32,000 bases of DNA from Delftia acidovorans NBRC 14950 (lineage in GTDB: Bacteria > Pseudomonadota > Gammaproteobacteria > Burkholderiales > Burkholderiaceae_C): NCBI RefSeq assembly GCF_001598795.1, contig NZ_BCZP01000012.1, forward strand, positions 30,001 to 62,000, in the 5' to 3' direction. Numbering within the stretch: position 1 is the first letter of the stretch; each line of letters starts with the position of its first letter. Below, one piece after another: positions 8,348 to 25,068 of this stretch. The notes under the pieces are model-generated. The model did not search any database. It saw nothing but the letters and a program-made list of their open reading frames with translations, and was not told the DNA's origin. Made by a program: the position numbers and the translations under genes.

Positions 8348-10882
8348 ATGCGCCCTCAGACCATGCGCCAGAACTCCATGCGGCAGACTGCCGCCTCCAC
8401 CGTCCGCCCATCCCCGGCGGCCCCGGCGTTACGTCCGGTGGCGCTGGCGCTGCAGGTGCTGTGCGCGGGCACGCTGGCGGGGCTGGCTGCCGCAGGCGCC
8501 CTGGCTCCGGCCCAGGCCTGGGCGCAGCCGGCTGCCGGTGCTTCGCAGCAACGCCAGTACGACATTGCAGCCGGCCCGCTGGAAAGCGTGCTCAACCAGC
8601 TCGGGCGCGAGGCCGGCGTGCTGGTCACCTTCGGCTCGGCCGTCACCGAAGGGCTGCGCAGCGGCGGCGTGAGCGGGCGCTTCACCGTGGAGCAGGCGCT
8701 GGACCGCGCCTTGCTGGGCACGCCGCTGGCGGCCGTGCGCTCGGCCGGTGGCGGCTACACCCTGCGCGAGATGCCCGTGGTGCCTGCCACCTCCGGCGCG
8801 GCGGGTGCTGCGGGTGCGGCAGGCGCGGGGTCCTCCCAGACACTCAGGACCGTGCTGGTCACGGCCTCGGCCCAGGCCAGCCCCACCACCGAAGGCTCGG
8901 GCTCCTACACCACGCCGGCCACGGCGGCGGCCACGGGCCTGAGCCTGTCGCTGCGCGACACGCCGCAGTCCGTCAGCGTGCTCACGCGCCAGCAGATCGA
9001 GGACCAGGGCCTGCTCTCGCTCAACGACGCCATGCGCAGCGTCACCGGCATCCATGTCGTCAGCTCGGACAGCGACCGCTCGGACTTCTACTCGCGCGGC
9101 TTCTACGTGGACAACCTGCAGTACGACGGCGTGCCCACCTCCATCGGCCTGTCGTTCTACGGTGACTCGGGCACCGATACCACCATCTATGACCGCGTCG
9201 AAGTGGTGCGCGGCGCCACGGGCCTGCTCACGGGCGCGGGCAACCCGTCGGCCTCCATCAACATGGTGCGCAAGCACGCCAACAGCAAGGTGTTCACGGG
9301 CTCGGCCTCGGCCAGCGTGGGCTCGTGGAACCACCATCGCGGCACGGTGGACCTGTCCATGCCGCTGACGCAGGACGGCCGCATCCGCGCACGCGTCGCA
9401 GGCATGGCCGAAGAGCGCGACTCCCATGTGGATCTCTACCACGCGCGCAAGCAGGTCTTCTACGGCGTGATCGATGCCGACCTCACGCCCGACACCACGC
9501 TCAGCGTGGGCGCCGACTACCAGTCCAACCGGCCCACCGGCTCGACCTGGGGCGGCCTGCCGCTGGTCTTCACGAACGGCATGCCAGCCGACTGGAGCAC
9601 CTCCAAGACCACGGCCGCGAACTGGACGCGCTGGAACAGCACCAACAAAAACATCTTCGCCAACCTGCAGCACCGCTTTGGCAACGACTGGAAGCTCAAG
9701 GCCAACTTCGTGCACCGCGACAGCGCCTACGACGCCAAGCTGCTGTACCTCATGCGCCAGCCCGACATCACCACCGGCCTGGGCATGGCGGCCCTGCCCA
9801 ACTACTCCGAATACAGCTTCCAGCAAAACAGCGCCGACCTGCAGGTGACGGGCGGCTGGGAACTGGGCGGGCGCCGCCATGAGGCCGTTGTCGGCCTGAC
9901 CAGCAGCCGCGCCCGCGAGCACAAGGCCGGCCATGCGCGCACCAGCCCCCTGCAGGACGTGGGCAACTACTACCAATGGGACGGCTCCTATGCCGAGCCC
10001 ACCTGGGGGCCGCTGACCACCAGCAGCCTGGACCACACGCGCCAGGACGCGCTGTACGGCGCGCTGCGCCTGTCGCTGGCCGATCCGGTCAAGCTCATCG
10101 TGGGCGGGCGCCAGAGCAGCTGGAAGGTGCGCAGCCTCAGCGAGGTGCGCGACCACAACGTCTTCATCCCCTACGCAGGCCTGGTGCTGGACCTGAGCGA
10201 AGGCTTCTCGGCCTATGCCAGCTACACCGACATCTTCCAGCCTCAGAACTACCGCGACCGCGGCGGCAGCTACCTGGACCCCGTGGCGGGCAAGAGTTTC
10301 GAGATCGGCATCAAGGGCGAGCACCTGGACGGCAGGCTCAACAGCTCGCTGTCCGTCTTCCGCATCCAGCAGGACAACGTGGCCCAGCTGGACGAAGGCC
10401 AGGTCGTGCCCGGCACCACCGACTTCGCCTACTACGGCGCCAAGGGCGTGACCAGCAAGGGCTTCGAGGCCCAGGTCTCGGGCGAGCTGGCCACGGGCTG
10501 GAACCTGTCGGCCGGCATTGCCCACACCGTCGCGCGTGACGCCCAGGGCCTGTCCATCAACGCCTGGGCGCCCAAGACCCAGGCCCAGCTGTTCACTTCC
10601 TACCGCCTGCCCGGTGGGTGGAATCAGCTCACCGTGGGCGGCGGCCTGCAATGGCAAAGCCGCACCCGCGCCAGCGTCTTCGTGGCGGGCAATGACCTGG
10701 TCTTCGAGCAGAAATCCTTCGCCACCGCCAGCCTCATGGCGCGCTATGCCTTCAGCCCCAGGCTCTCGCTGCAGCTGAACCTGAACAACCTCTTCAACAA
10801 GAAGTACTACGTCAACATCGACGGCCAGGGCCAGTTCGGCACGCCGCGCCAGGCCATGGCGGTGCTGAACTACAAGTTCTGA
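8348..10882 (+). CDS. TonB-dependent siderophore receptor with STN signalling domain (third transducer)
   Basis: ATG at 8348 within ORF 8330..10882. Long signal region ending AQAWAQP. STN segment YDIAAGPLESVLNQLGREAGVLVTFGS...EQALDRALLGTPL. Plug motifs PQSVSVLTRQQIEDQG and RVEVVRGATGLLTGAG. C-terminal ...VLNYKF. Confidence 0.9.
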   Translation: MRPQTMRQNSMRQTAASTVRPSPAAPALRPVALALQVLCAGTLAGLAAAGALAPAQAWAQPAAGASQQRQYDIAAGPLESVLNQLGREAGVLVTFGSAVTEGLRSGGVSGRFTVEQALDRALLGTPLAAVRSAGGGYTLREMPVVPATSGAAGAAGAAGAGSSQTLRTVLVTASAQASPTTEGSGSYTTPATAAATGLSLSLRDTPQSVSVLTRQQIEDQGLLSLNDAMRSVTGIHVVSSDSDRSDFYSRGFYVDNLQYDGVPTSIGLSFYGDSGTDTTIYDRVEVVRGATGLLTGAGNPSASINMVRKHANSKVFTGSASASVGSWNHHRGTVDLSMPLTQDGRIRARVAGMAEERDSHVDLYHARKQVFYGVIDADLTPDTTLSVGADYQSNRPTGSTWGGLPLVFTNGMPADWSTSKTTAANWTRWNSTNKNIFANLQHRFGNDWKLKANFVHRDSAYDAKLLYLMRQPDITTGLGMAALPNYSEYSFQQNSADLQVTGGWELGGRRHEAVVGLTSSRAREHKAGHARTSPLQDVGNYYQWDGSYAEPTWGPLTTSSLDHTRQDALYGALRLSLADPVKLIVGGRQSSWKVRSLSEVRDHNVFIPYAGLVLDLSEGFSAYASYTDIFQPQNYRDRGGSYLDPVAGKSFEIGIKGEHLDGRLNSSLSVFRIQQDNVAQLDEGQVVPGTTDFAYYGAKGVTSKGFEAQVSGELATGWNLSAGIAHTVARDAQGLSINAWAPKTQAQLFTSYRLPGGWNQLTVGGGLQWQSRTRASVFVAGNDLVFEQKSFATASLMARYAFSPRLSLQLNLNNLFNKKYYVNIDGQGQFGTPRQAMAVLNYKF

Positions 10883-12506: not shown

Positions 12507-12669
12507 GGGGGATCTGCGCAGTTTTTTGAAGAAATCTGCGCCCGGGGTGGTCTGTTTAGAGAACTCGCGGGACATGGAGGAAGAGGGGGGCTTGCCATGC
12601 CGGGCCCGCCCATCGATTCGTCCATCCATCCGTTTGTCTTTTCCTTCCAGGCCCAGTCCTTCGCACACC

Positions 12670-15216
12670 ATGGCATATCCCGCAGCGCCCCGGCGCTTTC
12701 CCTGCGCCTTGCGCCCCTCCGTCGTCCCGTCCCGTGGCCTTTTGCTGGCATTGGCCTGCGCAGGGTTGGGCAGCAACCTGTGGGCGCAGGCGCCTTCGCC
12801 TTCCGTCAACACCACGGCCGCCACGGCAGCCACACGCAGCTACCAGATTCCGGCGGGCACGCTGGAGGACGCGCTCAACCGCTTCGGGCGCGACTCGGGT
12901 TTGCTGCTGTCCTTCACCCAGGACCAGGTCCAGGGCCTGCGCAGCCCGGGGCTGCAGGGCAGCCACACCGCGCAGGCCGGCCTGGCCGCGCTGCTGCAGG
13001 GCACGGGGCTGGAGGCGGCGGTGCAGCCGCAAGGCGGCTATGTGCTGCGCCAGCGCGCCGTGCCCGATGCCCGGGCGCCAGACGTTGCCCCGCGCGCGGT
13101 GTCGCTGGCCGAGGTGCGCGTGGCCGCGCGCCGCGCCGGTGACGGCACGACCGAAGGCACGGGCTCCTACACCAGCCGCGTGACCAGCATTGCCTCCAAG
13201 ACGGACCAGTCGTTCCGCGAGATTGCGCAGTCGGTATCGGTGGTCACACGCGAACAGCTCGACGACCAGCGCGTGACCGATGTGACCGAGGCCCTCAAGC
13301 TCACGCCCGGCGTGGTCGTGGCCAATACCGTGGGCGACTTCTATTCGCGGGGCTTTCAGATCACCAGCATGCAGATCGACGGCGGCGCGCCGCTGGCTTT
13401 GGGCGCATACACCTATTCGCCGCAGCAGGACATGGCCTTCTACGACCGCGTCGAAGTCATGCGCGGCGCCTCGGGCCTGCTGGGCGGCGTGGGCGATCCG
13501 GGCGGCATCATCAACCTGGTGCGCAAGAAGCCGCTGGCCCAGCGGCAGTTCAAGGCCGCGCTGTCGGCCGGCTCCTGGAGCCGGCGCGGCGTGGAGCTCG
13601 ATGCCAGCGCGCCGTTGGCCGACGACGGCCGCGTGCGCGGCCGCGCCGTGCTGTCCTACCACAAGGGTGACTCCTACATGGACCTGCGCAGCAGCGAAAA
13701 GCCCTCGCTCTACGGCGTGCTGGAGGCCGACCTCACGCCAGACACCCTGCTGACCGTGGGCGGCAGCTACGGAAAGACCCATGAGAACGGCGACTATGCC
13801 GGCCTGCCGCGCTTTGCCGACGGCAGCAGCCTTGGCCTGCCGCGCCACACCAACTTCACCCAGCCCTGGGCCTATTACGACTACGAGACCAAGGAGCTGT
13901 TCGCCCAGCTCGAGCACAAGTTCGACAACCGCTGGAAGGCCAAGCTCAACGTCTCGCGCGTGGAGACCGAGCTGGACCGCTTCTGGGTCTACATGGGCGG
14001 CGCCATCAACCCGCAGACCCTGGCGGGTGCGGTCTGGCGCGGCGGCCACATCCAGTCCGGCAATACGCAGGAGGTGGTGGACCTGAGCCTGGGTGGTCCC
14101 TTCCAGCTCATGGGCCGCACGCATGAATTGCTGCTGGGCGCGGACTGGCAGCGCGTGGAAAGCTTCTGGCAAAGCGCCAATTTCACGGGCAGCGGCACCG
14201 TGGCCAGCAATCCGTTTGCCCCCAGCATCTGGACGCCGCCCACGGAAACCTACTTCAACACCCGCTACGGCCCCTGGGGCCAAAAGCAGATGGGCGGCTA
14301 TGGCGTGCTGCGCCTGCATCCCACGGACAGGCTGCACCTCATCCTGGGTGCGCGCGCCAGCCGCTACGACTTCCAGCAGTCGATCTGGAACCTGGATGCG
14401 CAGGGCAACCGCACGCCCTGGTCGAACACGCCGTTCAAGGAACCCACCAAGATCACGCCCTATGGCGGGGTGATCTATGACCTGAACAGCCAGTGGTCGG
14501 CCTATGCCAGCTATTCGTCCATCTTCAAGCCGCAGGCGCTGAGCATGGCCGGCCCGGCGCCGGGCACCTCGCTGCCGCCGGTCAAGGGCGCCAGCTACGA
14601 GGCCGGCCTCAAGGGCGAGCTGATGGACGGGCGGCTGAACGCCACCTTCAGCGTCTTCAATGTGGAGCGCACGGGCACGGCCGTGGTGGACCCGCGCTAC
14701 GAGACCAGCAACAGCCGCTGGGGCGGCAACTGCTGCTACCTGGCACAGGGCAAGGTCACCAGCCGGGGCTTCGACATGGAGCTGGGCGGCGAGCTGCAGC
14801 CCGGCTGGCAGCTGGCAGCGGGCTACACCTTCAACAACACCCGCGACCGCAGCACCGAAAAGACCTACAGCAGCATCACGCCGCGCCACCTGTTCAAGCT
14901 GTCCACGGCCTATACGCTGCCGGGCGAGCTGTCGCGCTGGAAAGTGGGCGGCAGCGCCCAGATCCAGAGCACGCACTACGTCAGCGGCACGGCGCTGTCG
15001 GCGGCGGGCACGTCCGTGCCCTTTGACTTCACGCAGGGCGGCTACGCGCTTTGGAATGCCATGGTGCAGTACCGCATCGACCCGCGCTGGACGGTCACGC
15101 TGAACATCAACAACCTGCTCGACAAGACCTACTACCAGACCCTGGGCACAACGTTCAGCAACAACCTGTATGGCGCACCGCGCCACGCCATGCTCACGCT
15201 GCGCGGCAGCTTCTGA
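12670..15216 (+). CDS. TonB-dependent siderophore receptor with STN signalling domain (fourth transducer)
   Basis: ATG at 12670 within ORF 12526..15216 (MAYPAAPRRF...LLLALACAGLGSNLWAQA). STN segment YQIPAGTLEDALNRFGRDSGLLLSFTQ...AGLAALLQGTGL. Plug motifs AQSVSVVTREQLDDQR and RVEVMRGASGLLGGVG. C-terminal ...TLRGSF. Confidence 0.9.
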   Translation: MAYPAAPRRFPCALRPSVVPSRGLLLALACAGLGSNLWAQAPSPSVNTTAATAATRSYQIPAGTLEDALNRFGRDSGLLLSFTQDQVQGLRSPGLQGSHTAQAGLAALLQGTGLEAAVQPQGGYVLRQRAVPDARAPDVAPRAVSLAEVRVAARRAGDGTTEGTGSYTSRVTSIASKTDQSFREIAQSVSVVTREQLDDQRVTDVTEALKLTPGVVVANTVGDFYSRGFQITSMQIDGGAPLALGAYTYSPQQDMAFYDRVEVMRGASGLLGGVGDPGGIINLVRKKPLAQRQFKAALSAGSWSRRGVELDASAPLADDGRVRGRAVLSYHKGDSYMDLRSSEKPSLYGVLEADLTPDTLLTVGGSYGKTHENGDYAGLPRFADGSSLGLPRHTNFTQPWAYYDYETKELFAQLEHKFDNRWKAKLNVSRVETELDRFWVYMGGAINPQTLAGAVWRGGHIQSGNTQEVVDLSLGGPFQLMGRTHELLLGADWQRVESFWQSANFTGSGTVASNPFAPSIWTPPTETYFNTRYGPWGQKQMGGYGVLRLHPTDRLHLILGARASRYDFQQSIWNLDAQGNRTPWSNTPFKEPTKITPYGGVIYDLNSQWSAYASYSSIFKPQALSMAGPAPGTSLPPVKGASYEAGLKGELMDGRLNATFSVFNVERTGTAVVDPRYETSNSRWGGNCCYLAQGKVTSRGFDMELGGELQPGWQLAAGYTFNNTRDRSTEKTYSSITPRHLFKLSTAYTLPGELSRWKVGGSAQIQSTHYVSGTALSAAGTSVPFDFTQGGYALWNAMVQYRIDPRWTVTLNINNLLDKTYYQTLGTTFSNNLYGAPRHAMLTLRGSF

Positions 15217-15218
15217 GG

Positions 15219-15246
15219 ACGGCGGCGCAGGCGTTCGGGCCGCCGT
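15219..15246. terminator. GC-rich hairpin between convergent genes (ACGGCGGC-N12-GCCGCCGT), without a U-tract
   Basis: An 8-bp perfect stem starts 3 nt after the receptor stop (15214-15216) and ends 27 nt before the stop of the - strand ORF at 15273. With no T-run, it may act as a stabiliser or a rho-dependent site rather than a classical terminator. Confidence 0.35.
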
Positions 15247-15272
15247 TGTGCAGCCAGCGGCCTTGCGGGGGA

Positions 15273-15530
15273 TCACACCACGCGCCGGGTCTCCACCTTC
15301 ACATGGCCGGCCAGCAGGTCGGCACTGTCGCGGATGGCGCGCAGCGCATGGGCCAGGGCCTGCTGGCTGTGGTGCTCCTGCGGTGCATGCACTGCCGCCA
15401 AGGCCAGTTGCGCCAGGGCCGAGATCTCGGAGCAGTTTTCCTGCACGCTGCTGTGGATCTCGGTGATGGCGCTGGTCAACTGGTGCAGGCTGGGGGGCTG
15501 TGTCCTGGGGGTGTCCTTGTCCATGGCCAT
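15273..15530 (-). CDS. Small hypothetical protein (85 aa), paralogue of the upstream ORF
   Basis: ORF 15273..15530. It begins 3 nt after the stop of ORF 15534..15914 (TGA GGC ATG on the - strand). About 50% identity to that ORF over about 60 aa. Shared motifs are C-x-E-I-S-x-x-A-Q-L-A-L-A and A-L-x-x-I-R-D-S-A-x-x-L-A. The start may instead be the ATG at 15524. Confidence 0.6.
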   Translation of the reverse strand: MAMDKDTPRTQPPSLHQLTSAITEIHSSVQENCSEISALAQLALAAVHAPQEHHSQQALAHALRAIRDSADLLAGHVKVETRRVV

Positions 15531-15533
15531 GCC

Positions 15534-15914
15534 TCAGCCCTGCGGGCGCACCGGCTCACGGGTGCGGCATTCGAGCAGTTGCGCCATGGCTTTGGCGGCT
15601 GCCTCGGCCGCTTCGGCGCGGCGCATCTCGGCCGCGTCTTCGAATCCGCAGCCCATGGCCTGGGCCTCGGTGCCGGCGTAGTCGGCCAGCGTCTCGGCGC
15701 TGTCGCGGATGCTTTGCAGGGCGCGGGCCACCACGTCCATGTGGCGATGGCCCTTGGGCGTCTCCAGCCATGCCAGGGCCAGCTGGGCGATGGAGGAGAT
15801 CTCTGCACAGCCTTGCTGCACGAGATGGTCCACCTGGGTGAGGGCATTGGACAGCTGCCGGGTGCTGTGGCTGTCCGTGGCGGGGGTGGGCTGGTTTGGC
15901 TGGGTGGAGGTCAT
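15534..15914 (-). CDS. Small hypothetical protein (126 aa), first gene of a two-gene paralogous pair
   Basis: The internal ATG at 15914 of ORF 15534..16088 is preceded by GGAGGG at a 7-nt spacing on the - strand. The protein starts MTSTQPNQPTPATD... It contains a helical core LTQVDHLVQQGCAEISSIAQLALAWLE...VVARALQSIRDSAETLADY and an Ala/Glu-rich tail. I do not recognise a family with confidence. Confidence 0.6.
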   Translation of the reverse strand: MTSTQPNQPTPATDSHSTRQLSNALTQVDHLVQQGCAEISSIAQLALAWLETPKGHRHMDVVARALQSIRDSAETLADYAGTEAQAMGCGFEDAAEMRRAEAAEAAAKAMAQLLECRTREPVRPQG

Positions 15915-16035
15915 GCCATGTCCCTCCGTGTCTGGCGCTGCGTGGATGGCAAGCGTGAGGGAGGGAGCGCGCAAAGACAGGGCGCGCGGGTCTGCCCGAG
16001 AAAAACGGTACTCATGTTTCGATGCTCCATTACGT

Positions 16036-16082
16036 ATCGAATCCACGGGCCATTGCAATCTGCATTGGCTGGTGGATTCGAT
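16036..16082. promoter_or_regulatory. 47-bp near-perfect palindrome (candidate operator or RNA hairpin) upstream of the small paralogue pair
   Basis: The outer arms ATCGAATCCAC / GTGGATTCGAT are perfect (11 bp). The inner arms GCCATTGCA / TGCATTGGC have one mismatch. Overall 19 of 23 positions are symmetric about 16059. It lies 122-168 nt upstream of the ATG at 15914. On the - strand, a TTGCAA hexamer sits at its centre. Confidence 0.5.
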
Positions 16083-16280
16083 GTGCAAGCCTCGCTTTCG
16101 GAGAGGCGGTGCCGCTTGCTAATGGGTGTTTTGAAGCACCGGCCCCGTGACAGGGGGCTGGTGCGGATGATAGCGCGTGCGGCGTGCGCAAAGTCGCTTC
16201 GCGGCCCGCTGCACCTTGCGATCGCGCCCTTTCAGGGATGGCCCAGGAACCGCTGAAAGAGCCCGGCATGCGTTGCGTTT

Positions 16281-16299
16281 ATTGAGAATGATTCTTCTT
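16281..16299 (+). promoter_or_regulatory. Fur-box-like operator (ATTGAGAATGATTCTTCTT) upstream of the PepSY / MacAB operon
   Basis: Its left half is identical to that of the perfect box at 6700 (ATTGAGAAT). It shares the 12-mer AGAATGATTCTT with box 1. TTGAGA (16282-16287) and TATGAT (16308-16313) are possible -35 and -10 elements, although the 20-nt spacer is long. Confidence 0.65.
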
Positions 16300-16339
16300 T
16301 GCGAGGTTATGATCCAGCCCCATGGATTTGTCCGCCTCC

Positions 16340-16461
16340 CTCACCGCACTCCGCGTGCAGGGTGAGCGCCAGCCCCATGCCGGCCTGCGGGCGGGCGCAG
16401 CAACACCGGGCGTAGGCCGGCAACCACCCAGGCCGCTGTCCATTGCGGCTGGCCTTTTTTT
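16340..16461 (+). ncRNA. Structured leader or candidate small RNA: three hairpins, the last an intrinsic-terminator-like stem plus T7
   Basis: Hairpin A, 16340-16366: CTCACC..GGTGAG plus an inner GCAC..GTGC. Hairpin B, 16378-16422: a 12-bp stem (TGCCGGCCTGCG / CGTAGGCCGGCA) with one G-T pair. Hairpin C, 16428-16452: CCAGGCCGC / GCGGCTGG with one bulge, followed by CC and TTTTTTT (16455-16461). The element sits between the Fur box and the ATG at 16547. Confidence 0.4.
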
Positions 16462-16546
16462 CAATCTCGTTTGTCATGTATCAGGAGGGCCGTTACGGCC
16501 ATTGCTTTCGGCATTTGCATTGCCGCTTTTCTGAACAACCCGCTAC

Positions 16547-16882
16547 ATGTCCCTTTCCCATTCCAGCCAATCCGGCCAATCCGGTCATTCCGCCAAACCC
16601 TCCCATCCGGGCCTGCTTGTGGTTTCCCGCCTGCTGGCCGCCGTCTTCGGCGGCTATGCGCTGGCCAGCGCGCTGGCGGCCTTCCTGGCCGCTGCGCTGC
16701 CCGGCGCGCGTGTCGATGCCGTGATCGCCGGCATGCAGTGGAGCTTTGCGCTGCACGCGCTGGCGGTGATCTGGGCGTTCTCGCCGGTTTCGGCGGGCCG
16801 GGTCTGGCTGGGTTTGCTGGTGCCTGCGGCCCTGATGGGCGGCGCCGCGCTGCTGCTGGCGCGCAATGGCGGGGGCGTTTGA
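16547..16882 (+). CDS. Small integral membrane protein, DUF3649-like (family name from memory), first gene of the iron-regulated operon
   Basis: ORF 16547..16882 (111 aa). A Ser/Gln/Gly-rich N-terminus is followed by three hydrophobic helices (LLVVSRLLAAVFGGYALASALAAFLAAAL, WSFALHALAVIWAF, VWLGLLVPAALMGGAALLLA). Its stop lies 1 nt before the next ATG. The start is uncertain because no clear SD is present; GTG at 16618 is an alternative. Confidence 0.6.
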   Translation: MSLSHSSQSGQSGHSAKPSHPGLLVVSRLLAAVFGGYALASALAAFLAAALPGARVDAVIAGMQWSFALHALAVIWAFSPVSAGRVWLGLLVPAALMGGAALLLARNGGGV

Positions 16883-16883
16883 G

Positions 16884-18599
16884 ATGGCAAAGGCGCAGAT
16901 CAGCAAGGTCCCCGGCAGCGGCGCTGCCACGGGCGGTTTCCGCCAGGCCCAGGCCTGGCTGCATACCTGGTGCGGGCTGTGGTTTTCGTGGCTGCTGTTC
17001 GCGGTGTTCCTCACGGGTTCGCTGGCCGTGTTCCAGGAAGCCATCACGCACTGGATGACACCCGAGCACCATGCCGAGGAGGCGGCCGAGGCGGCAGCGC
17101 GCGCCGCCGCGCCGGCCGGGCAGGGTGCGGACCTGGGCCAGCGCCTGGCCTGGGGCGCGGCCTACATGCAAAAGCACCACCAGGGCGCGCAGATGTGGGA
17201 GATCTGGCCGTCCGACGACAAGGGCGGCGGCGACCTGCATGTCTATTGGTTCGACGCCAACCGCCAGTACGCCGACGCCGAGCTGGACACCGCCACGGGG
17301 GAGGAAATGACGGCAGGCCACGGCCACGGGGCCGCGCGCGCCACCATGGGCGGCAACCATTTCGTGGACTTCCACTATGAACTGCATGCAGGGCAGGTGG
17401 GGCTGTGGGTGATCGGCATTGCCGCCATGGCCATGCTGGTGGCCCTGGTCAGCGGCGTGATCACGCACAAGCGCATCTTCAAGGACTTCTTCACCTTTCG
17501 CGCACGCAAGGGCCAGCGCAGCTGGCTGGACGCGCACAACGCCGTGGCGGTGCTGACGCTGCCCTTCCAGTTCATGATTGCCTATACCGGCATCGCCATC
17601 TCCAGCCTGAGCTTCATGCCCGTTGGCGTCTGGACGGTCTATGGCACGGACCAGGCCGCCCGCACGGCCTTCATCGCCGACATGACCGAGGCCGGGCCGC
17701 CCGCGCCTTCCGGCAAGCCCATGGCCGTGCCGGATCTGGAGTCGTTTGCACGGCGCGGCCAGGAGCTGATGGGCCAGGCGGTGCGCGCGGTGGTCGTCAA
17801 CCATCCCGGCGATGCGTCGGCACGCATCGGCGTCTACGGCTGGAACAGCGATGACCGTGCGCATCAGCGCCTGAGCCCCAATTCGGGCATGGCCATGTTC
17901 TCGGCCGCCACGGGCGAGGTGCTGCAGGTGCGCCTGCCCGGCGGTGCCGACGGCGGCACCCCCTCGCTGGCCCAGGCGGTCATGGGCGGGCTGCACATGG
18001 TCAAGTTCGGCGGGCTGGCCATGAAGTGGCTGTACTTCCTGTGCGGCCTGGCGGGCGCGGCCATGATGGCCACGGGCGCCATCCTCTTCATGGTCAAGCG
18101 CCGCAGCCGCCACCAGGGCGAGTTCGGCAGCGCCACGGCGCGCGTGTACCGGCTGATCGAGGGCCTGAACGTGGCGGCCATCGCCGGGCTGGGCCTGGGC
18201 TGCATCGGCTATCTGTGGGCCAACCGCCTGGTGCCCGTGGGCCTGGCGCACCGCGATGACTGGGAGCTGGCCGTGTTCTTCGGCCTGTGGGGCCTGGCGC
18301 TGATCCATGCGCTGGCCTGCGCGCCGGCCACGGCCTGGCGCCAGCAGATGGGCCTGCTGGCCATGCTGTGCCTGCTGCTGCCGCTGCTCAACTGGATCAC
18401 CGTGGGCGAGCCGCTGTCGGCCCACATGCTGGAGGGCGACTGGGAAAGCGCCGGGGTGGAGCTGTTCTGCCTGGCCACGGGGCTGGCGGCCGCCTGGGCC
18501 TGGCGCTGGCTGGCGCGGCGCGGCGCGGGTGCCGCCGCCAAGGCAAGGACGGCCAAGGGGCAGGCCGCCGTGGCCGGCCCCTCGGAGGTGCAGGCATGA
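16884..18599 (+). CDS. PepSY-associated TM-helix protein (PiuB/FoxB-like putative inner-membrane siderophore/iron reductase)
   Basis: ORF 16866..18599, with the ATG at 16884 directly after the upstream stop. Starts with the typical RQAQAWLHTWCGLWFSWLLFAVFLTGSL, followed by periplasmic loops and further TM helices. His residues flank the helices (ITHWMTPEHH, HFVDFHYELH, ITHKRIF, LDAHNAV, GGLHMVKFGG), as expected for haem ligation in this family. Confidence 0.8.
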   Translation: MAKAQISKVPGSGAATGGFRQAQAWLHTWCGLWFSWLLFAVFLTGSLAVFQEAITHWMTPEHHAEEAAEAAARAAAPAGQGADLGQRLAWGAAYMQKHHQGAQMWEIWPSDDKGGGDLHVYWFDANRQYADAELDTATGEEMTAGHGHGAARATMGGNHFVDFHYELHAGQVGLWVIGIAAMAMLVALVSGVITHKRIFKDFFTFRARKGQRSWLDAHNAVAVLTLPFQFMIAYTGIAISSLSFMPVGVWTVYGTDQAARTAFIADMTEAGPPAPSGKPMAVPDLESFARRGQELMGQAVRAVVVNHPGDASARIGVYGWNSDDRAHQRLSPNSGMAMFSAATGEVLQVRLPGGADGGTPSLAQAVMGGLHMVKFGGLAMKWLYFLCGLAGAAMMATGAILFMVKRRSRHQGEFGSATARVYRLIEGLNVAAIAGLGLGCIGYLWANRLVPVGLAHRDDWELAVFFGLWGLALIHALACAPATAWRQQMGLLAMLCLLLPLLNWITVGEPLSAHMLEGDWESAGVELFCLATGLAAAWAWRWLARRGAGAAAKARTAKGQAAVAGPSEVQA

Positions 18600-18973
18600 G
18601 CACGTTGCACGCATCCCTGGCCGCACTGGCCCTGGCCTTTGCAGGCATGGCGGCCCTGGCCTTTGCCATGGACCGCCACTACGAACAATTGACCGGCGCG
18701 CGCGAGCTGCCGGCCCGCCGTGGCCCGCAGTTGCGCGGCCTGGGCACGGCGCTGCTGGCGCTGGCCCTTGTGCCCGTTCTTTCGGGCTGGGGCGGCACGG
18801 TGGGCACGGTGGCCTGGCTGGGCTTTGTGTCCGCCGGCGCGCTGATGGCCGTGGCCCTGATCAGCGCCCATGCGCGCTGGGCGGCGCGGCTGGCCTGGTT
18901 GGCTGGCGTGCTTGCCGTGGCGGATTTGGCATGGATTGTTTTCAGTTTCGGTACTACGGGGTTTTTCAGATGA
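18596..18973 (+). CDS. Small integral membrane protein, DUF3325-like (family name from memory)
   Basis: The ATG at 18596 overlaps the PepSY stop (ATGA) and lies in ORF 18287..18973. The protein starts MSTLHASLAALALAFAGMAALAFAMDRHYEQLTG... It has about four hydrophobic helices. The trio of small membrane protein, PepSY-TM protein and small membrane protein is a recurrent arrangement as I recall it. Confidence 0.6.
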   Translation: MSTLHASLAALALAFAGMAALAFAMDRHYEQLTGARELPARRGPQLRGLGTALLALALVPVLSGWGGTVGTVAWLGFVSAGALMAVALISAHARWAARLAWLAGVLAVADLAWIVFSFGTTGFFR

Positions 18974-19022
18974 GTTTCCTGCTTTCGTTCCAGTTCGGGG
19001 TGTGTGTGATCGGGAGGCAAGC

Positions 19023-20273
19023 ATGACGCGCACGCAGCAACGCTGGAAAGCCATCGCCGTGGCGGTGGTCCTGTTGGCGGCGGCCGGGGGCGCGGCCGCC
19101 TGGTGGTCCAGCCGGCCTGCCGTGGCCTACCAGACCGAGACCGTGGCGCGCACCGATATCGAGTCCACCGTCACGGCCATCGGCACGCTGCAGCCGCGCC
19201 GCTATGTGGACGTGGGCGCCCAGGTGTCGGGCCAGGTCACCCGGCTGCGCGTGGAGCCCGGCGCCCAGGTGGAAAAGGGCGCACTGCTGGTGGAGATCGA
19301 CCCCAGCGTGCAGCGCGCCACGGTGGATGCGGGGCGTGCCTCGCTGGCGGGCCTGCGCGCCCAGCTGGCCGAGCAGCAGGCGCTGCGCAAGCTGGCCGAG
19401 CAGCAGCTCACGCGCCAGCGCCAGCTGGCCCGCGACGGGGCCACGCGCGAGGAAGACCTGCAGACCGCAGAAGCCAACCTGGCCGCAGCCGGCGCCCGCA
19501 TGGAGCACCTGAAGGCCCAGATCGACCAGACCCAGGCCACGCTCAAGGCCGACGAGGCGCGCCTGGGCTATACGCGCATCTACGCGCCCATGGCGGGCAC
19601 CGTGGTGTCGGTGGAGGCGCGCGAGGGCCAGACGCTGAACGCCACCTACCAGACGCCCAACATCCTGCGCATTGCCGACCTGTCGGCCATGACGGTGTGG
19701 ACCGAGGTGTCCGAGGCCGACGTGCGCCGCGTGCGCGACGACATGCCGGTGTACTTCACCACGCTGGGCGGCGCCGACCAGGCCAGGCCCCGGCGCTGGT
19801 CCAGCAAGGTGCGCCAGGTGCTGCCTTCGCCCTCTACCAGCCAGGCACCGGCCGGCGGCAATGCGGGCCAGGCGCCTGCGCCCGCCACCAAGGCCGTGGC
19901 CTATACCGTGCTGTTCGATGTGGACAATGAGGACGCCGAGCTGATGCCCCAGATGACGGCCCAGGTGGTCTTTGTCACCGGGCAGGCCGCGCAGGCGCTG
20001 ACCGTGCCGCTGATGGCCGTGGCCGACAAGGCGGGAACGACTGACAAGGCAGAAAAGGCAGAAAAAGCCGAGAAGGCCGAGAAGGCCGAGAAGGCCGGCA
20101 GCACGCAGACCGTGCGCGTGCTGGACGCCAAGGGCCAGCCCGAGCAGCGCACCGTGCGCCTGGGCGTGCGCAGCCGCCACCAGGCCGAGGTGCTGGAGGG
20201 CCTGCAGGAAGGCGAGCGCGTCATCGTCGGCGAGACGCCTCTGGACCGTGGCCCGCGGTGGCTGCAATGGTGA
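19023..20273 (+). CDS. macA: Efflux periplasmic adaptor (membrane fusion protein), MacA/PvdR-like
   Basis: The ATG at 19023 within ORF 18870..20273 is preceded by GGGAGG. It has an N-terminal TM anchor (WKAIAVAVVLLAAAGGAAAWW), a lipoyl/barrel motif (VDVGAQVSGQVTRLRVEPGAQVEKGALLVEIDP), a long coiled-coil hairpin, and LGYTRIYAPMAGTVVSV. Confidence 0.85.
   Translation: MTRTQQRWKAIAVAVVLLAAAGGAAAWWSSRPAVAYQTETVARTDIESTVTAIGTLQPRRYVDVGAQVSGQVTRLRVEPGAQVEKGALLVEIDPSVQRATVDAGRASLAGLRAQLAEQQALRKLAEQQLTRQRQLARDGATREEDLQTAEANLAAAGARMEHLKAQIDQTQATLKADEARLGYTRIYAPMAGTVVSVEAREGQTLNATYQTPNILRIADLSAMTVWTEVSEADVRRVRDDMPVYFTTLGGADQARPRRWSSKVRQVLPSPSTSQAPAGGNAGQAPAPATKAVAYTVLFDVDNEDAELMPQMTAQVVFVTGQAAQALTVPLMAVADKAGTTDKAEKAEKAEKAEKAEKAGSTQTVRVLDAKGQPEQRTVRLGVRSRHQAEVLEGLQEGERVIVGETPLDRGPRWLQW
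20043..20096 (+). repeat. In-frame 9-bp tandem repeat x6 encoding D/E-K-A units inside the adaptor gene
   Basis: The units are gacaaggca gaaaaggca gaaaaagcc gagaaggcc gagaaggcc gagaaggcc. The last three units are identical. Translation is DKAEKAEKAEKAEKAEKA. Confidence 0.95.
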
Positions 20274-22267
20274 TGGCGCAGGGCATGCAGGCCGGCGCGC
20301 CGCTGACCGCACCGCTGATAGAGCTGCGCGGCATCACCAAGCACTACGGCGGCGGCGACAGCGGCCAGCCCGCCGTCACCGTGCTGCACGGCATCGACCT
20401 GGAGATACGCGCGGGTGAGTTCGTCGCGGTGGTGGGCAGCTCGGGCTCGGGCAAGTCCACGCTGATGAACATCCTGGGCTGCCTGGACCGGCCCAGCGAG
20501 GGCAGCTACCACTTCCAGGGCCAGGACGTGGCCACGCTGGACTCGGACGCGCTGGCCTGGCTGCGGCGCGAGGCCTTCGGCTTCGTCTTCCAGGGCTACC
20601 ACCTGATAGCCAGCGAAAGCGCCAGCGAGAACGTGGAAATGCCCGCCATCTACGCGGGCCTGCCCAAGGAAGAGCGCGTGCGGCGCGCCCGTGCGCTGCT
20701 GGAGCGCCTGGGCCTGGGCTCGCGCCTGGGCAACCGGCCCAACCAGCTGTCGGGCGGGCAGCAGCAGCGCGTGTCGATTGCGCGCGCGCTGATGAACGGC
20801 GGCCAGATCATCCTGGCCGACGAGCCCACGGGCGCGCTGGACTCGCACAGCGGCGCCGAAGTCATGGCCCTGCTGCGCGAGCTGGCCGACGCGGGCCACA
20901 CCATCATCCTCATCACCCACGACCGCACTGTGGCCGCCCAGGCGCGCCGCGTGATCGAGATCAGCGACGGCCGCATCACCAGCGACAGCCAGCGCGACGA
21001 TGCCACTAATGGGGTGAATGCGGGCGCCGCTGCCCTGCCGCTCACGCCGCAGCGTGGCAGCGCCGGCGCGCCCTGGCTGGCGGAACTGTTCGAGGCCGCG
21101 CGCAGCGCCTGGCGCGGCATGCGCATGAACCGCGTGCGCACCAGCCTGACCTTGCTGGGCATCGTCATCGGCGTGGCCTCGGTGATTGTCATGCTGGCCA
21201 TTGGCGAGGGCGCGCGGCGCAAGGTGGTCGAGCAGATGGGGACCATGGGCACGGCCATCCTCTACATGGGCAGCAAACCGCCGGCCACGGGCGGGCCGGC
21301 CGGGCAGATGACCGAGGAAGACCTGGCCGCCGTGCGCGAACTGCCCGAGATACGGCGCGTCATGCCCGTGATCGGCGACCCCATCACCGTGCGCTACGGC
21401 AAGGCCGACAAGCAGATCTACGTGTTCGCGGCCAGCGAGGAGATGCCCCTGGTGCACCACTGGAAGCTGGCCCAGGGCCGCTACTACACCGAGGCCGAGG
21501 ACCGCGACCTGGCGCCCCTGGTGGTCCTGGGCCACAAGGCGCACCAGCACTTCTTCCCCGACACGCCCAACCCGCTGGGCCGCCAGCTGATCATCGGTAC
21601 ATCGGCCTTCGAGGTCATCGGCGTGATGAGCGAGCGGGGCGCGGACTCGGGCGCGCAGAACTATGACGACATGGTCTTCATTCCCTACCGCTCGGGCCGG
21701 GCGCGCGTCTACCAGTCGCAGACCCAGCCCGACTATGTGGTGATCGAGGCCATGTCCTCCGACGTGGTGCACGAGGCGGAGGAGGCCATGCGCAAGCTGC
21801 TGCTGGCGCGCCACGGCGGGCGCGAGGACTTCGGCATCGGCAATGCGGCCGCGCGCATCCAGGCCGAGGCCGCCACGCGCCAGAGCATGGCGGTGATGCT
21901 GGGCCTGATTGCCGCCGTCTCCCTGGTGGTGGGCGGCATCGGCGTGATGAACGTGATGCTGATGACGGTGCGCGAGCGCACGCGCGAGATCGGCATCCGC
22001 ATGGCCACGGGCGCGCGCCAGCGCGACATCCTGCGCCAGTTCCTGACCGAGGCCAGCCTGGTCACCTTCGTGGGCGGCACGGTGGGCCTGCTGGCCGGGC
22101 TGGCCGTGGGCGTGGTGCTCATCGTGGCGGGCGTGCCCGTGGTGTTTTCGGTGCGCGCCATGCTGGGCGCCTTTGCATGCGCCGTGGTGACGGGCCTGGT
22201 GTTCGGCTACATGCCTGCCAAGACGGCGGCGCGGCTGGACCCGGTGCGCGCGCTGGCGGGAGAGTGA
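20267..22267 (+). CDS. macB: MacB-type ABC transporter, fused ATPase plus FtsX-like permease (MacB/PvdT-like)
   Basis: ORF 20258..22267. Walker A GSSGSGKST, ABC signature LSGGQQQRVSIARAL and Walker B ILADEPTGALD. These are followed by four TM helices with a large periplasmic loop and a C-terminal ...YMPAKTAARLDPVRALA. The start is ambiguous: ATG at 20267, or ATG at 20273 overlapping the upstream stop. Confidence 0.9.
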   Translation: MVMAQGMQAGAPLTAPLIELRGITKHYGGGDSGQPAVTVLHGIDLEIRAGEFVAVVGSSGSGKSTLMNILGCLDRPSEGSYHFQGQDVATLDSDALAWLRREAFGFVFQGYHLIASESASENVEMPAIYAGLPKEERVRRARALLERLGLGSRLGNRPNQLSGGQQQRVSIARALMNGGQIILADEPTGALDSHSGAEVMALLRELADAGHTIILITHDRTVAAQARRVIEISDGRITSDSQRDDATNGVNAGAAALPLTPQRGSAGAPWLAELFEAARSAWRGMRMNRVRTSLTLLGIVIGVASVIVMLAIGEGARRKVVEQMGTMGTAILYMGSKPPATGGPAGQMTEEDLAAVRELPEIRRVMPVIGDPITVRYGKADKQIYVFAASEEMPLVHHWKLAQGRYYTEAEDRDLAPLVVLGHKAHQHFFPDTPNPLGRQLIIGTSAFEVIGVMSERGADSGAQNYDDMVFIPYRSGRARVYQSQTQPDYVVIEAMSSDVVHEAEEAMRKLLLARHGGREDFGIGNAAARIQAEAATRQSMAVMLGLIAAVSLVVGGIGVMNVMLMTVRERTREIGIRMATGARQRDILRQFLTEASLVTFVGGTVGLLAGLAVGVVLIVAGVPVVFSVRAMLGAFACAVVTGLVFGYMPAKTAARLDPVRALAGE

Positions 22268-22268
22268 G

Positions 22269-23723
22269 ATGAAAGACATGAACGACAAGACGATGCCGGC
22301 GCGCCTGGGCTGCATGGCCCTGGCCCTGGCTGCGCTGGGCGGCTGCGCCGCGCAGCAGACGGTGCCGGACAGGGCAGCGCCTGCGCTGGCCGCTTCGTGG
22401 AAGCAGCAGGGCGAAGCCGTCCCTGCCTCCGTCTCACCCCAGTGGTGGCAGGCCTTTGGCAGTGAGGAGCTGGGCGGCATGGTGCAGGCCGCCCAGGACC
22501 AGAGCCTGGACATGGCTGCCGCCATGGCCCGCGTGCGCCAGGCCGAGGCGGCCACGCGCCAGGCAGGCGCGGCGCTGCTGCCGTCGCTCAGCGGCGAGCT
22601 GCGCGCCCAGCGCATGAACCATGCACAGGTGGCGGGCGGGCAGGCCAGCGTCTACGGCGCTGCGCTGACGGCCTCGTATGAGGTGGACTTCTGGGGCCGC
22701 AACCGCGCCACGCGCGATGCGGCGGCGGCGGCCTGGCAGGCCAGCCGGTTTGACCAGGACACGGTGCGCCTCACGGTCACCGCCCAGGTGGCCCATGGCT
22801 GGCTGCAGGCCGTGGCGCTGCGCGAGCGCCAGGCCATTGCGGCGCGCAACGTGGCCAATGCCGAGCGGCTGCTGGGCCTGGTGGAGTCCCGCGCGCGCGC
22901 AGGCGCCGCCACCCAGCTGGAGTTGGCCCAGCAGCGCGGCCTGGTGGCCAGCCAGCGCCAGGCCCTGGCCACGCTGCGCCGCCAGGGCGAGGATGCCGAT
23001 GCCACGCTGGCCGTGCTGCTGGGCCAGGCCCGCCGCCCCGCGCTGGCCACGGATTCGCTGCAGGCCCTGCAGCTGCCCGAGATCGGCGCAGGCCTGCCCA
23101 CGCAACTGCTGCAGCGCCGCCCTGACATTGCCAGTGCTGAGGCGCAACTGACCGCCGCCAGCGCCAACCTGCAGGCTGCGCGTGCGGCGCTGTGGCCCCG
23201 GCTGACCCTCACGGGCAGTGCAGGCACCAGCGCGGGCCGCGCCAGCGACTGGCTGCGCGAGCCGGTCTATTCGCTGCTGGCCGGACTGGCCGGCCCCATC
23301 TTCGACGGCGGCCGTCTGGCAGCCGAACGCGATGGCGCCCAGGCCCGGCGCGAGGAGCTGCTGGCCGGCTATTACAAGTCCATCGTCGCGGCCTATGGCG
23401 ATGTGGACCTGGCGCTCAACGCCGTCCACGGCCTGAAGGCCCAGGCCGAGGCCCAGGCCGAGGTGCTGGCCCAGGCCCGCCAGGCCGTGTCGCTGGCCGA
23501 GCTGCGCTACAAGGCCGGGGCGGAAAGCCTGCTGTCCCTGCTGCAGGCCCAGACCACGCTGTACGCGGCCCAGGACGATGCCGTGCTGCAGCGCCTGCTG
23601 CAGCTGCAGGCGCGCGTGGCGCTGTACCGGGCGCTGGGCGGGGGATGGGAGGCGCCTGCCATGGGCACTGAAATGCCGGAAAGGCAGGCACAAAAAAGCC
23701 AGGAGGCATTGCCACCTGGCTGA
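22269..23723 (+). CDS. Outer-membrane efflux lipoprotein, NodT/OprM/OpmQ family
   Basis: ORF 22269..23723 (484 aa). The ATG lies 1 nt after the macB stop. Lipobox LAALGGC. Typical features are WWQAFGSEEL, PDIASAEAQL and a duplicated coiled-coil/barrel architecture. C-terminal ALYRALGGGW. Confidence 0.9.
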   Translation: MKDMNDKTMPARLGCMALALAALGGCAAQQTVPDRAAPALAASWKQQGEAVPASVSPQWWQAFGSEELGGMVQAAQDQSLDMAAAMARVRQAEAATRQAGAALLPSLSGELRAQRMNHAQVAGGQASVYGAALTASYEVDFWGRNRATRDAAAAAWQASRFDQDTVRLTVTAQVAHGWLQAVALRERQAIAARNVANAERLLGLVESRARAGAATQLELAQQRGLVASQRQALATLRRQGEDADATLAVLLGQARRPALATDSLQALQLPEIGAGLPTQLLQRRPDIASAEAQLTAASANLQAARAALWPRLTLTGSAGTSAGRASDWLREPVYSLLAGLAGPIFDGGRLAAERDGAQARREELLAGYYKSIVAAYGDVDLALNAVHGLKAQAEAQAEVLAQARQAVSLAELRYKAGAESLLSLLQAQTTLYAAQDDAVLQRLLQLQARVALYRALGGGWEAPAMGTEMPERQAQKSQEALPPG

Positions 23724-23732
23724 GAGGGGAGG

Positions 23733-23782
23733 GGCAGGGCCGCCACCCGGTCCTGCCGGGTGTGCGGCCTGAGGCCTCAGGC
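23733..23782. terminator. Two GC-rich hairpins in the convergent gap between the efflux operon and the acyl-CoA dehydrogenase gene
   Basis: First hairpin: GGCAGGGCC-N7-GGTCCTGCC (23733-23757), 9 bp with one G-T pair. Second: the perfect 16-bp palindrome GCCTGAGGCCTCAGGC (23767-23782). Neither has a U-tract. Confidence 0.4.
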
Positions 23783-23793
23783 TTGATGCCTGC

Positions 23794-25068
23794 TCAGCTG
23801 CCGCGCGTGATGGGCACGCCGGCATCCTTGCCGTAGGCGCCGTACTTGCCCAGCTCCCACTTGGCGATGGCGTTGCGGTGCACTTCGTCCGGGCCGTCGG
23901 CAAAGCGCAGCGTGCGCGCGTGGGCGTAGGCGCTGGCCAGCGGGAAGTCGTCGCTCATGCCGCCGCCGCCGTGCACCTGCATGGCCCAGTCGATGACCTG
24001 GCAGGCCATGCTGGGGGCCACGACCTTGATCATGGCGATCTCGCTGCGGGCCACCTTGTTGCCGGCAATGTCCATCAGCCAGGCGGCCTTGAGCGTGAGC
24101 AGGCGCGCCATGTCGATGCGGCAGCGTGCCTCGGCGATGCGTTCCTGCGTCACGGTCTGCTGGGCCACGCTCTTGCCGAAGGCGATGCGCGAGCTGGCGC
24201 GCTTGCACATCAGCTCCAGCGCGCGCTCGGCCAGGCCGATCAGGCGCATGCAGTGGTGGATGCGGCCGGGGCCAAGGCGGCCCTGGGCGATCTCGAAGCC
24301 ACGGCCCTCGCCCAGCAGGATGTTGCCCACGGGAACGCGCACGTTCTCGAAGTACATCTCCATGTGGCCGTGCGGCGCATCGTCATAGCCCATGACGTTG
24401 AGCGGACGCACGATGCGGATGCCAGGAGCGTCGCCGGGCACGATGATCATGCTTTGCTGCGAGTGCTTGGGCGCGTCGGGGTCGGTCTTGCCCATGGTGA
24501 TGAAGGCCTGGCAGCGCGGATCGCCGGCACCCGAGATCCACCACTTGTGGCCGTTGATCACGTACTCGTCGCCCTGGCGCTCGATGCGGGTGCAGATGTT
24601 GGTGGCGTCGGAGGAGGCCACTTCGGGCTCGGTCATGGCGAAGGCCGAGCGGATCTTGCCGTCCAGCAGCGGCTTGAGCCAGCGCTCCTTGAGTTCGGTG
24701 CTGCCGTAGCGCGCAATGGTCTCCATGTTGCCGGTGTCGGGAGCAGAGCAGTTGAACACCTCGCTGGACCATGGCACGCGGCCCATGATCTCGGCCAGCG
24801 GCGCGTATTCCTGGTTGGTCAGGCCGCCGCCCTTGTAGCCAGCGGCCTCGGCGCTGTCCACGGGCAGGAACAGGTTCCACAGGCCTTGCTCCCGGGCCTT
24901 GACCTTGAGCTTCTCGATGGTCTGCAGCGGCGTCCAGCGCTTGCCTGCGGCGGTGTTGGCTTCCATCTCGGCGGCATAGTCCTTTTCGCCGGGATAGATG
25001 TGCTCGTCCATGAACTTCAGCAGGCGTTCCTGCAGGTCCTTGGTCTTGGGCGAATATTCAAAGTCCAT
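23794..25068 (-). CDS. Acyl-CoA dehydrogenase, FadE2 / ACAD10-ACAD11 C-terminal-domain type
   Basis: ORF 23794..25068 (424 aa). [28 protein letters not shown]..., [59 protein letters not shown] and [16 protein letters not shown] are characteristic of this ACAD subgroup. An AAGGAG SD lies upstream. Confidence 0.85.

Follow-up and report, generated by a model that had tools for sequence, protein, structure and literature searches.

A conserved Burkholderiales gene order that pairs a putative siderophore reductase with a MacAB-NodT pump behind an ECF-type promoter motif in Delftia acidovorans

We analysed a stretch of 32,000 nucleotides (nt) from the Delftia acidovorans NBRC 14950 genome (contig NZ_BCZP01000012.1, G+C content about 69%), called the window below, in which three membrane protein genes (DUF3649, PepSY_TM and DUF3325, together the trio) are followed by the genes of a MacA-MacB-NodT pump. 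With moderate confidence, we regard this locus as one copy of a conserved Burkholderiales module that would use ferric siderophores without importing them into the cytoplasm, by reduction followed by re-export. It would be served by a promoter of the extracytoplasmic function (ECF) sigma factor type, and the relic of a deleted regulator and receptor unit precedes it. The full ancestral order would be ECF sigma / FecR anti-sigma factor, TonB-dependent transducer, DUF3649, PepSY_TM, DUF3325, MacA, MacB and NodT-type outer-membrane factor.

According to this model, a ferric siderophore would enter the periplasm through the receptor. The PepSY_TM protein, a putative haem reductase of the FoxB/FpvG type, would work with its two small partners to carry electrons across the inner membrane, to reduce Fe(III) and to release Fe(II). 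MacAB-NodT would then take the iron-free or wrongly metallated siderophore from the periplasm and expel it outward, as PvdRT-OpmQ does with pyoverdine, while Fe(II) would be taken up by an unlinked transporter. Transcription would start at a FecI-type ECF promoter just 5' of DUF3649 and would respond to cell-surface signalling, with iron acting indirectly via the Fur boxes of sigma genes. The cognate sigma-FecR fusion and receptor genes have been deleted in this lineage of Delftia, and their Fur-boxed promoter now stands about 160 nt 5' of the ECF promoter, behind a weakened terminator. The trio and the pump are intact and are therefore presumably served by other receptors and sigma factors of the cluster.

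All six open reading frames reported on the plus strand by the initial annotation of this DNA are present:

16547-16882, plus strand: gene 1, DUF3649 small membrane protein of 111 amino acids (aa) with about 3 transmembrane (TM) helices (PF12365, E 2.2e-8; conservation and hydropathy).
16884-18599, plus strand: gene 2, PepSY_TM protein (PF03929, E 3.8e-61), 571 aa from ATG 16884 or 577 aa from a start at 16866.
18596-18973, plus strand: gene 3, DUF3325 membrane protein of 125 aa with 4 helices (PF11804, E 5.8e-27); its start overlaps the gene 2 stop.
19023-20273, plus strand: gene 4, MacA-like periplasmic adaptor of 416 aa with an N-terminal TM helix (Pfam HlyD_D23 and HlyD_3).
20273-22267, plus strand: gene 5, MacB-type ABC ATPase/permease of 664 aa (Pfam ABC_tran, MacB_PCD and FtsX); its start overlaps the macA stop.
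22269-23723, plus strand: gene 6, NodT-type outer-membrane factor lipoprotein of 484 aa (Pfam OEP, two matches; lipobox LGGC in ...LAALGGCAA).

Pfam agrees with the families first proposed for all six products, and the 577-aa protein stays inside the PepSY_TM family. The coupled or overlapping junctions can be read directly from the letters (TGAgATG at 16880-16886, ATGA at 18596-18599, TGATG at 20271-20275 and TGAgATG at 22265-22271), again as first described. A 49-nt spacer (18974-19022) separates the DUF3325 gene from the macA gene; no significant structure (z 0.16), predicted terminator or promoter was found in it. Judging from this arrangement, the trio and the pump probably form one transcription unit.

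The same gene order recurs in many bacteria of soil and water. A PepSY_TM profile search yielded 80 species-representative loci, and the 71 with at least 7 kb of downstream sequence were counted. MacA and MacB genes directly follow DUF3325 in 35 of these 71 loci, 25 of which also carry a homologue of the outer-membrane factor, and a TonB-dependent receptor gene stands directly 5' of the trio in 47 loci. The reductase-pump order occurs in Comamonadaceae, Oxalobacteraceae, Pigmentiphaga and a Steroidobacteraceae genome. Pump-linked loci are dispersed over the PepSY tree (Pigmentiphaga, Rhodoferax/Albidiferax, Janthinobacterium and a 44-46% identical paralogue), and this scatter suggests an old linkage with repeated loss. 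Once corrected for unaligned N-termini, the gaps between DUF3325 and macA measure about 0-115 nt, with the exception of Variovorax; gene junctions in these loci are often shorter than 20 nt. In Variovorax locus L035 (12059-12712), and also in L032 and L039, a gene for a periplasmic DUF4198-like protein is inserted between DUF3325 and macA; an extra protein of this kind is encoded between PepSY_TM and DUF3325 in locus L092 (6472-7122). Its similarity to DUF4198 is weak and sub-threshold. Only 5-20 nt separate the stop codon of the receptor gene from the start of DUF3649 in Comamonas thiooxydans-type loci, in Rhodoferax and in V. jilinensis, and this gives a seven-gene unit running from the receptor to the outer-membrane factor. 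A reverse lookup was also made from MacB. Two of three homologues (72-75% identical), one in a Steroidobacteraceae genome and one on a soil contig, follow the order TonB-dependent receptor, PepSY_TM, (DUF4198-like), small open reading frame, DUF3325, MacA; the third, in an Alcaligenaceae genome, is without this order.

Two loci from Acidovorax and Comamonas composti (L026 and L027) contain tandem PepSY_TM units (about 12900-21600). The second unit encodes a 44-46% identical paralogue and has a receptor of its own; DUF3649 was not detected in it, and MacAB follows it.

The coupling of a reductase to a pump beside siderophore transducers, to which the initial annotation had drawn attention, is thus supported by the order in 35 of 71 loci, by the tight junctions and by the frequent inclusion of a receptor in the unit, and it is not special to this locus. 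No published link between PepSY_TM proteins and MacB-type pumps was found in the full-text literature, where DUF3325 and DUF3649 appear in just two papers. The pairing of trio and pump seems to be undescribed; every component, and the logic, are already known from the pyoverdine system.

The gene 2 product matches PF03929 over the complete profile (1-295 of 295) with 207.9 bits, the gathering cut-off being 28.8. Its TM segments lie at residues 30-55, 167-196, 220-239 and 383-405, and three to four more are found in a C-terminal extension; the C-terminal 162 aa have no Pfam match. His27, His168, His218 and His371 are invariant among 20 homologues (62-98% identity). The protein has the four TM helices and membrane-edge histidines of FoxB/FpvG-type reductases, and its TM1 histidine aligns with the LLH motif of FoxB; the equivalence of the other three to FoxB ligands is one of pattern only. 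FoxB (7ABW) is the only PDB relative recovered with a sequence profile (E 0.007), and it is the sole significant Foldseek match of the structural model (E 1.6e-5, probability 1.0). TM-scores to 7ABW are low (0.23-0.33) because the model, which has beta-rich segments between the helices, is poor (pLDDT 61), and the model is poor because the alignment contained close homologues alone; it was used solely to recover FoxB as top match. By analogy with FoxB, a dihaem ferrioxamine reductase (bioRxiv 10.1101/2021.01.28.428567), the PepSY_TM protein is predicted to bind haem and to reduce ferric siderophores.

The DUF3649 gene precedes PepSY_TM in most loci surveyed. In the DUF3325 protein, R27, H28 and Q31 at the end of helix 1 are invariant and M25 is nearly so; its four-helix model is confident (pLDDT 84.6), and no solved structural relative of it was found. 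No NCBIfam model matched the products of genes 1-3. The view that these small proteins have no known role needs to be qualified, since precedents exist. FpvH is the small partner of the PepSY_TM reductase FpvG, with which it forms a complex (PMC6954188), and HiuC is a small partner that works jointly with HiuB in Caulobacter (PMC13001220). In Pseudomonas psychrophila, random-barcode transposon sequencing revealed strong fitness defects on cheese curd medium for a DUF3649 gene and its PepSY_TM-type neighbour; the defects were relieved by fungi, which the authors interpreted in terms of iron availability (bioRxiv 10.1101/2020.03.19.999193). A pepSY-DUF3325 pair is also included in the list of the Stenotrophomonas Fur regulon (PMC6240677).

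The MacB-type protein gives full-length alignments with solved MacB structures, among them that of E. coli (5NIK, E 5e-163), and its translation contains Walker A GSSGSGKST, signature LSGGQQQR and Walker B ILADEPT. It shows the MacB architecture of an N-terminal ABC ATPase, a 4-TM FtsX permease and a large periplasmic core domain. The adjacent adaptor and outer-membrane factor typical of tripartite pumps are present as an HlyD/RND_mfp protein and an outer_NodT lipoprotein, the latter scoring 308 bits with TIGR01845 (cut-off 210 bits). Both MacB (652 bits, cut-off 966, NF007826) and MacA (250 bits, cut-off 342, NF008606) miss the NCBIfam equivalog models, MacA matching the RND_mfp subfamily. 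They are therefore family members and not orthologues of E. coli MacA and MacB. Some MacB homologues with 75-88% identity carry the NCBI/UniRef pipeline name PvdT; there are no pyoverdine genes in the window. By analogy with PvdRT-OpmQ, which recycles pyoverdine in P. aeruginosa and whose PvdT subunit is contacted by FpvF (PMC6954188), the substrate of the Delftia pump would be an apo-siderophore.

The region in front of gene 1 contains the following elements:

16283-16297, plus strand: Fur-box-like operator TGAGAATGATTCTTC, found by pattern match; it overlaps a sigma-70-like promoter.
16322-16430, plus strand: relic of an ECF sigma-FecR fusion gene and a TonB-dependent receptor gene, of which the start codon, some 10 codons and an internal fragment of 25 nt (16351-16375) are left.
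16430-16461, plus strand: shortened terminator hairpin of the receptor gene, then a T7 run, from folding; the T run doubles as spacer of the ECF-type promoter.
16450-16477, plus strand: FecI-type ECF sigma promoter-like motif TGGCCTTTTTTTCAATCTCGTTTGTCAT (-35-like TGGCC, -10-like GTCAT), from conservation 5' of the trio.
16488-16531, plus strand: leader hairpins GGCCGTTACGGCC (16488-16500) and CGGCATTTGCATTGCCG then CTTTTCT (16509-16531), from folding of the 5' untranslated region.

The promoter-like motif is conserved well beyond Delftia. The motif, with the consensus ATGGCCCTTTTTTCGTTCTCGTTTGTCATGTA, takes in the T run and the 20 nt after it. About 38 loci, belonging to Delftia, Comamonas, Acidovorax, Alicycliphilus, Variovorax and Xylophilus, carry it just 5' of DUF3649, with or without a preceding hairpin. 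A weight matrix derived from the motif identified 36 trio-upstream sites and 19 others, and 16 of these 19 fall within the 400 nt that follow a FecR gene. Such stretches, in which FecI-type promoters of receptor genes sit, make up 0.9% of the scanned sequence. The only other matches in the window, at 4067 and 12548, each stand behind a FecR gene and ahead of its transducer gene. The -10 part TCTCGTTTGTCAT resembles the TTTCGATTGTCCT stretch of the E. coli fecA promoter (read from MG1655), which we take to be its FecI-dependent -10 region. The window thus combines sigma genes, FecR genes and STN transducers with a FecI-type target promoter motif, as in FecI/FecR/FecA-type signalling regulons. 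We conclude on sequence grounds that the trio promoter is a predicted target of a cell-surface-signalling (FecI-type ECF) sigma factor. Iron control would then probably be indirect, via Fur-boxed sigma genes, because the conserved element of the trio is an ECF promoter motif; in the window strain, extra Fur-controlled read-through may come from the relic promoter.

The two other motifs of the window extend over 4067-4095 and 12548-12576, and the 4067 copy TGACACTTTTTCGGATCTCGGCTGGCAAC is the one most similar to the trio promoter. This makes the sigma gene at about 2549-3058, which was read by eye in its 2.5-kb unit, a candidate for regulating the trio in the window strain.

The Fur box belongs to another gene pair. 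The pattern TGAGAATnATTCTCA, with at most two mismatches, has three matches in the window (6702, 10935 and 16283) when 0.03 are expected from shuffles, and a weaker fourth copy is located at 2496. The copies at 6702, 10935 and 2496 stand 16-42 nt 5' of ECF sigma gene starts. The 16283 copy is 25 nt away from ATG 16322, which opens no gene. A possible -10 sequence, TATGAT at 16308-16313, was assigned by eye, and the promoter scan gave no sigma-70-type site. Other Delftia contigs (L001-L003) have 4.2 kb between the Fur-boxed promoter and the trio that are missing from the window. In L001 this segment encodes a 451-aa single-chain protein with Sigma70_r2, r4_2 and FecR domains and an 831-aa STN-bearing TonB-dependent transducer, and the same Fur box and promoter precede the intact sigma-FecR gene. 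Window positions 16080-16351 match L001 5248-5523 (94%) and positions 16603-24500 match L001 9738-17620 (98%); in between, 16351-16375 matches L001 5936-5960, inside the sigma region (96%), and 16440-16491 matches a stretch just past the L001 receptor gene. Because flanks and internal pieces match the intact L001 unit, this part of the window is a deletion relic. The residual hairpin at 16430-16461 has a folding energy of -14.5 kcal/mol (z -1.8), compared with -30.1 kcal/mol (z -4.15) for the intact L001 hairpin. The relic is nearly base-for-base common to D. tsuruhatensis and D. acidovorans representatives.

A like relic is present in Comamonas L011 (about 9460-9620) and L014 (about 9330-9630), with the same promoter and start codon and with different junction sequences; both promoters, Fur-boxed and ECF-type, remain in these loci, and trio and pump are intact. 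By our own reading of the sequences, the Comamonas loss appears to be separate from the Delftia loss. Trio and pump have survived at least one, probably two, losses of the cognate receptor unit, which suggests that they are not tied to one receptor. As for the description of the operon as Fur-boxed, the box itself is real; it is the operator of the deleted sigma-FecR and receptor unit, and the element conserved in front of the trio is the ECF motif instead.

The sigma-FecR fusion (L001 5493-6848; Sigma70_r2, r4_2 and FecR, 451 aa) is also encoded 5' of the trio in Comamonas L010, L013, L017 and L047. Such a single polypeptide is unusual for a cell-surface signalling regulator. It is devoid of DUF4880, a domain that is N-terminal in all three separate FecR proteins of the window.

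We considered whether the box, the stretch of about 140 nt behind it and the hairpin with T7 (16283-16462) could be a Fur-regulated small RNA. This candidate was rejected as the main reading, the stretch being the relic of a deleted gene pair; the T run, moreover, is part of a promoter motif that is conserved even where no hairpin precedes it, and an Rfam search found nothing. A by-product RNA from this segment is possible.

A GC-rich hairpin follows the motif in most genera, with a genus-specific stem sequence (mean z -1.8 over 33 leaders); the window hairpin is by itself weak (z -0.2), and that of Variovorax is often followed by a U run. MAFFT left these variable hairpins unregistered, and per-sequence folding z-scores were used instead of a covariation count. 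The leader hairpin could be an attenuator or a stabilising 5' stem-loop; leader 16478-16531 matched no Rfam family. An upstream ATG at 16475 that would extend DUF3649 was discarded. Whereas it is in frame in L001, in the window it is not, and the conserved stretch is therefore non-coding.

Could Fur, bound at 16283, directly repress a single six-gene transcript, with no sigma factor or inducer involved? The box is a good and statistically unexpected match, its promoter has been the nearest sigma-70-type promoter upstream since the deletion, and the hairpin that separates it from the trio is weakened. The receptor unit is likewise gone from Comamonas L011 and L014, where the Fur-boxed promoter was kept beside the trio, and Achromobacter loci, in which tblastn detected neither DUF3649 nor a receptor gene, have a Fur-like box 65-79 nt ahead of the PepSY gene. 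However, the spacing from the box to ATG 16322 is that found at the sigma genes 6732 and 10990, and this ATG starts a gene relic. The box is located 250 nt upstream of gene 1, on the promoter of the relic gene, with a hairpin and a U7 run in between, and what different genera have in common is the ECF-type motif and not a Fur box. We therefore consider direct repression by Fur unlikely. It is a little less likely still that the pump exports a newly made endogenous siderophore, or toxic mimics, sideromycins or wrong-metal complexes, and that its adjacency to the trio reflects shared regulation only. PvdRT-OpmQ also exports new pyoverdine, the ABC-type SbiAB contributes to stenobactin secretion, MacAB substrates are varied and include enterobactin fragments and protoporphyrin, and half of the trio loci are without a pump. 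Against this, a synthetase gene was not found in the window or in the inspected pump-linked loci, and the pump is co-operonic with receptor and reductase in genera that make different siderophores, which fits the handling of imported material.

A trio acting on another metal or substrate, for instance by Cu(II) reduction as proposed for CrpH, with a pump exporting an iron-unrelated metallophore or peptide, appears very improbable. The PepSY_TM superfamily is indeed very diverse and has a copper-related subfamily (PMC13038864), and Delftia metallophores bind gold and other metals; but CrpH belongs to a separate sequence cluster tied to copper receptors (PMC13038864), the neighbours of the Delftia trio are Fur-boxed FecI/FecR units, and the closest solved relatives of the receptor encoded at 12526-15216 are the pyochelin, pyoverdine and alcaligin receptors. 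A more speculative version of the reduction and re-export model, to which we give about as little credence as to the secretion hypothesis, is that the trio and MacAB-NodT form one physically coupled, receptor-independent envelope machine. Apo-siderophore would pass directly from the PepSY cavity to the periplasmic domain of MacB, with DUF3649 and DUF3325 as coupling or electron-input subunits. Such a machine would explain both the survival of the genes through repeated deletion of sigma, anti-sigma and receptor genes and their position beside a bare Fur promoter.

Several observations weigh against the model of reductive release and re-export that we favour. The sigma-FecR gene that adjoined the trio promoter is deleted in this strain, the acting sigma factor is only a candidate, and the residual hairpin with U7 may block read-through from the Fur promoter. 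About half of the trio loci have no pump, which is therefore dispensable for reductase function. Since the PepSY_TM model is poor (pLDDT 61), it is mainly the sequence pattern that equates the histidines of this protein with the haem ligands of FoxB, and the MacA and MacB scores fall under the equivalog cut-offs. An Fe(II) importer, a periplasmic binding protein and a siderophore synthetase were not found linked to the operon, and experiments on this locus or any orthologue were not found in the literature.

The operon is preceded by three sigma/FecR/STN-transducer units and a fourth transducer truncated by the window start. The four siderophore transducers announced by the initial annotation are thus four STN-bearing TonB-dependent transducers located 5' of the operon, and its statement that the window lacks a siderophore synthetase, a binding-protein ABC importer and tonB-exbBD also holds. 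The receptor gene at 12526-15216 is the nearest to the trio in the window, and its product, 81% identical to the receptor encoded directly 5' of the trio in Acidovorax L012, could plausibly be the present partner of trio and pump. Between the fourth transducer gene, counted along the window, and the relic promoter are two paralogous small open reading frames (15273-15530 and 15534-15917, both minus strand; 85 and 127 aa); their conservation in other Delftia loci is 90-98%, and neither Pfam nor NCBIfam matched them. Delftia proteins reach 98% identity with the PepSY_TM protein, and the top species-level match is D. tsuruhatensis NBRC 16741 (L008). An acyl-CoA dehydrogenase gene (23794-25068) is next after gene 6, in convergent orientation. 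The rest of the window encodes an APH-family kinase, a Crp-like regulator, a 3-hydroxyacyl-CoA dehydrogenase, a long Pfam-negative open reading frame and a fragment of thiamine-phosphate synthase. The long frame (about 28900-31612, plus strand; about 900 aa from a plausible start) displays, by eye, low-complexity Ala/Pro-rich stretches and a FimV-like-looking C-terminal region, and the local G+C content drops to 62%.

Pyoverdine is essentially the only siderophore for which recycling by a dedicated pump, once the iron has been removed, is established. The FoxB, FhuB and HiuABC papers raise the question of how others, pirated ones among them, get out of the periplasm when reduction has freed their iron, and a widely conserved operon combining receptor, reductase and MacB-type pump is a concrete, genetically tractable candidate for this missing exit step. 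The module is found in genera that can be cultured (Delftia, Comamonas, Variovorax, Acidovorax and Janthinobacterium), and it gives a context to DUF3649 and DUF3325, two domains of unknown function. The deletion variants that occur in nature, some having the cognate receptor and regulator and some lacking them, are material for studying regulatory rewiring.

The system most similar to the proposed module is that of pyoverdine in P. aeruginosa (FpvGHJK-FpvCDEF and PvdRT-OpmQ). There, too, a reductase of the PepSY_TM type in the inner membrane, FpvG, is in complex with a small membrane protein, FpvH (PMC6954188). Periplasmic iron release, re-export of the apo-siderophore by a MacB-type tripartite pump, and control by Fur and ECF sigma factors through cell-surface signalling are features of the pyoverdine system (PMC6954188, PMC10866019) that would be shared by the Delftia module. 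In contrast to it, the Delftia reductase and pump genes adjoin one another with tight junctions, probably within a single transcription unit, and an FpvCDEF-type binding-protein/ABC iron importer, FpvJ/K and pyoverdine synthesis genes are lacking. The Delftia PepSY_TM protein also carries a C-terminal extension with 3-4 extra TM helices, and its partners are DUF3649 and DUF3325 proteins, which are likened to FpvH as small partners only. FoxB of P. aeruginosa, FhuB of B. cenocepacia and HiuB-HiuC of Caulobacter resemble the Delftia trio in their PepSY_TM family membership and conserved membrane-edge histidines, and in a gene that adjoins a TonB-dependent receptor with no linked inner-membrane importer; HiuB also has a small membrane partner, the 61-aa HiuC. 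They differ by the absence of a linked efflux pump, and FoxB, with 382 aa and 4 TM helices, is only distantly related. E. coli MacAB-TolC shares the full-length MacB architecture and a MacA-type adaptor, but the Delftia pump scores below the equivalog cut-offs, has its own NodT-type lipoprotein in place of TolC and lies in an iron/siderophore-uptake context. Finally, FecIRA-type regulons likewise combine Fur-boxed ECF sigma genes, FecR genes and STN transducers with a target -10 sequence resembling that of E. coli PfecA. Unlike in those regulons, the Delftia target promoter precedes a reductase-pump operon instead of a receptor/importer operon, and the cognate regulator is a single-chain sigma-FecR fusion, present in sister strains and deleted in the window strain.

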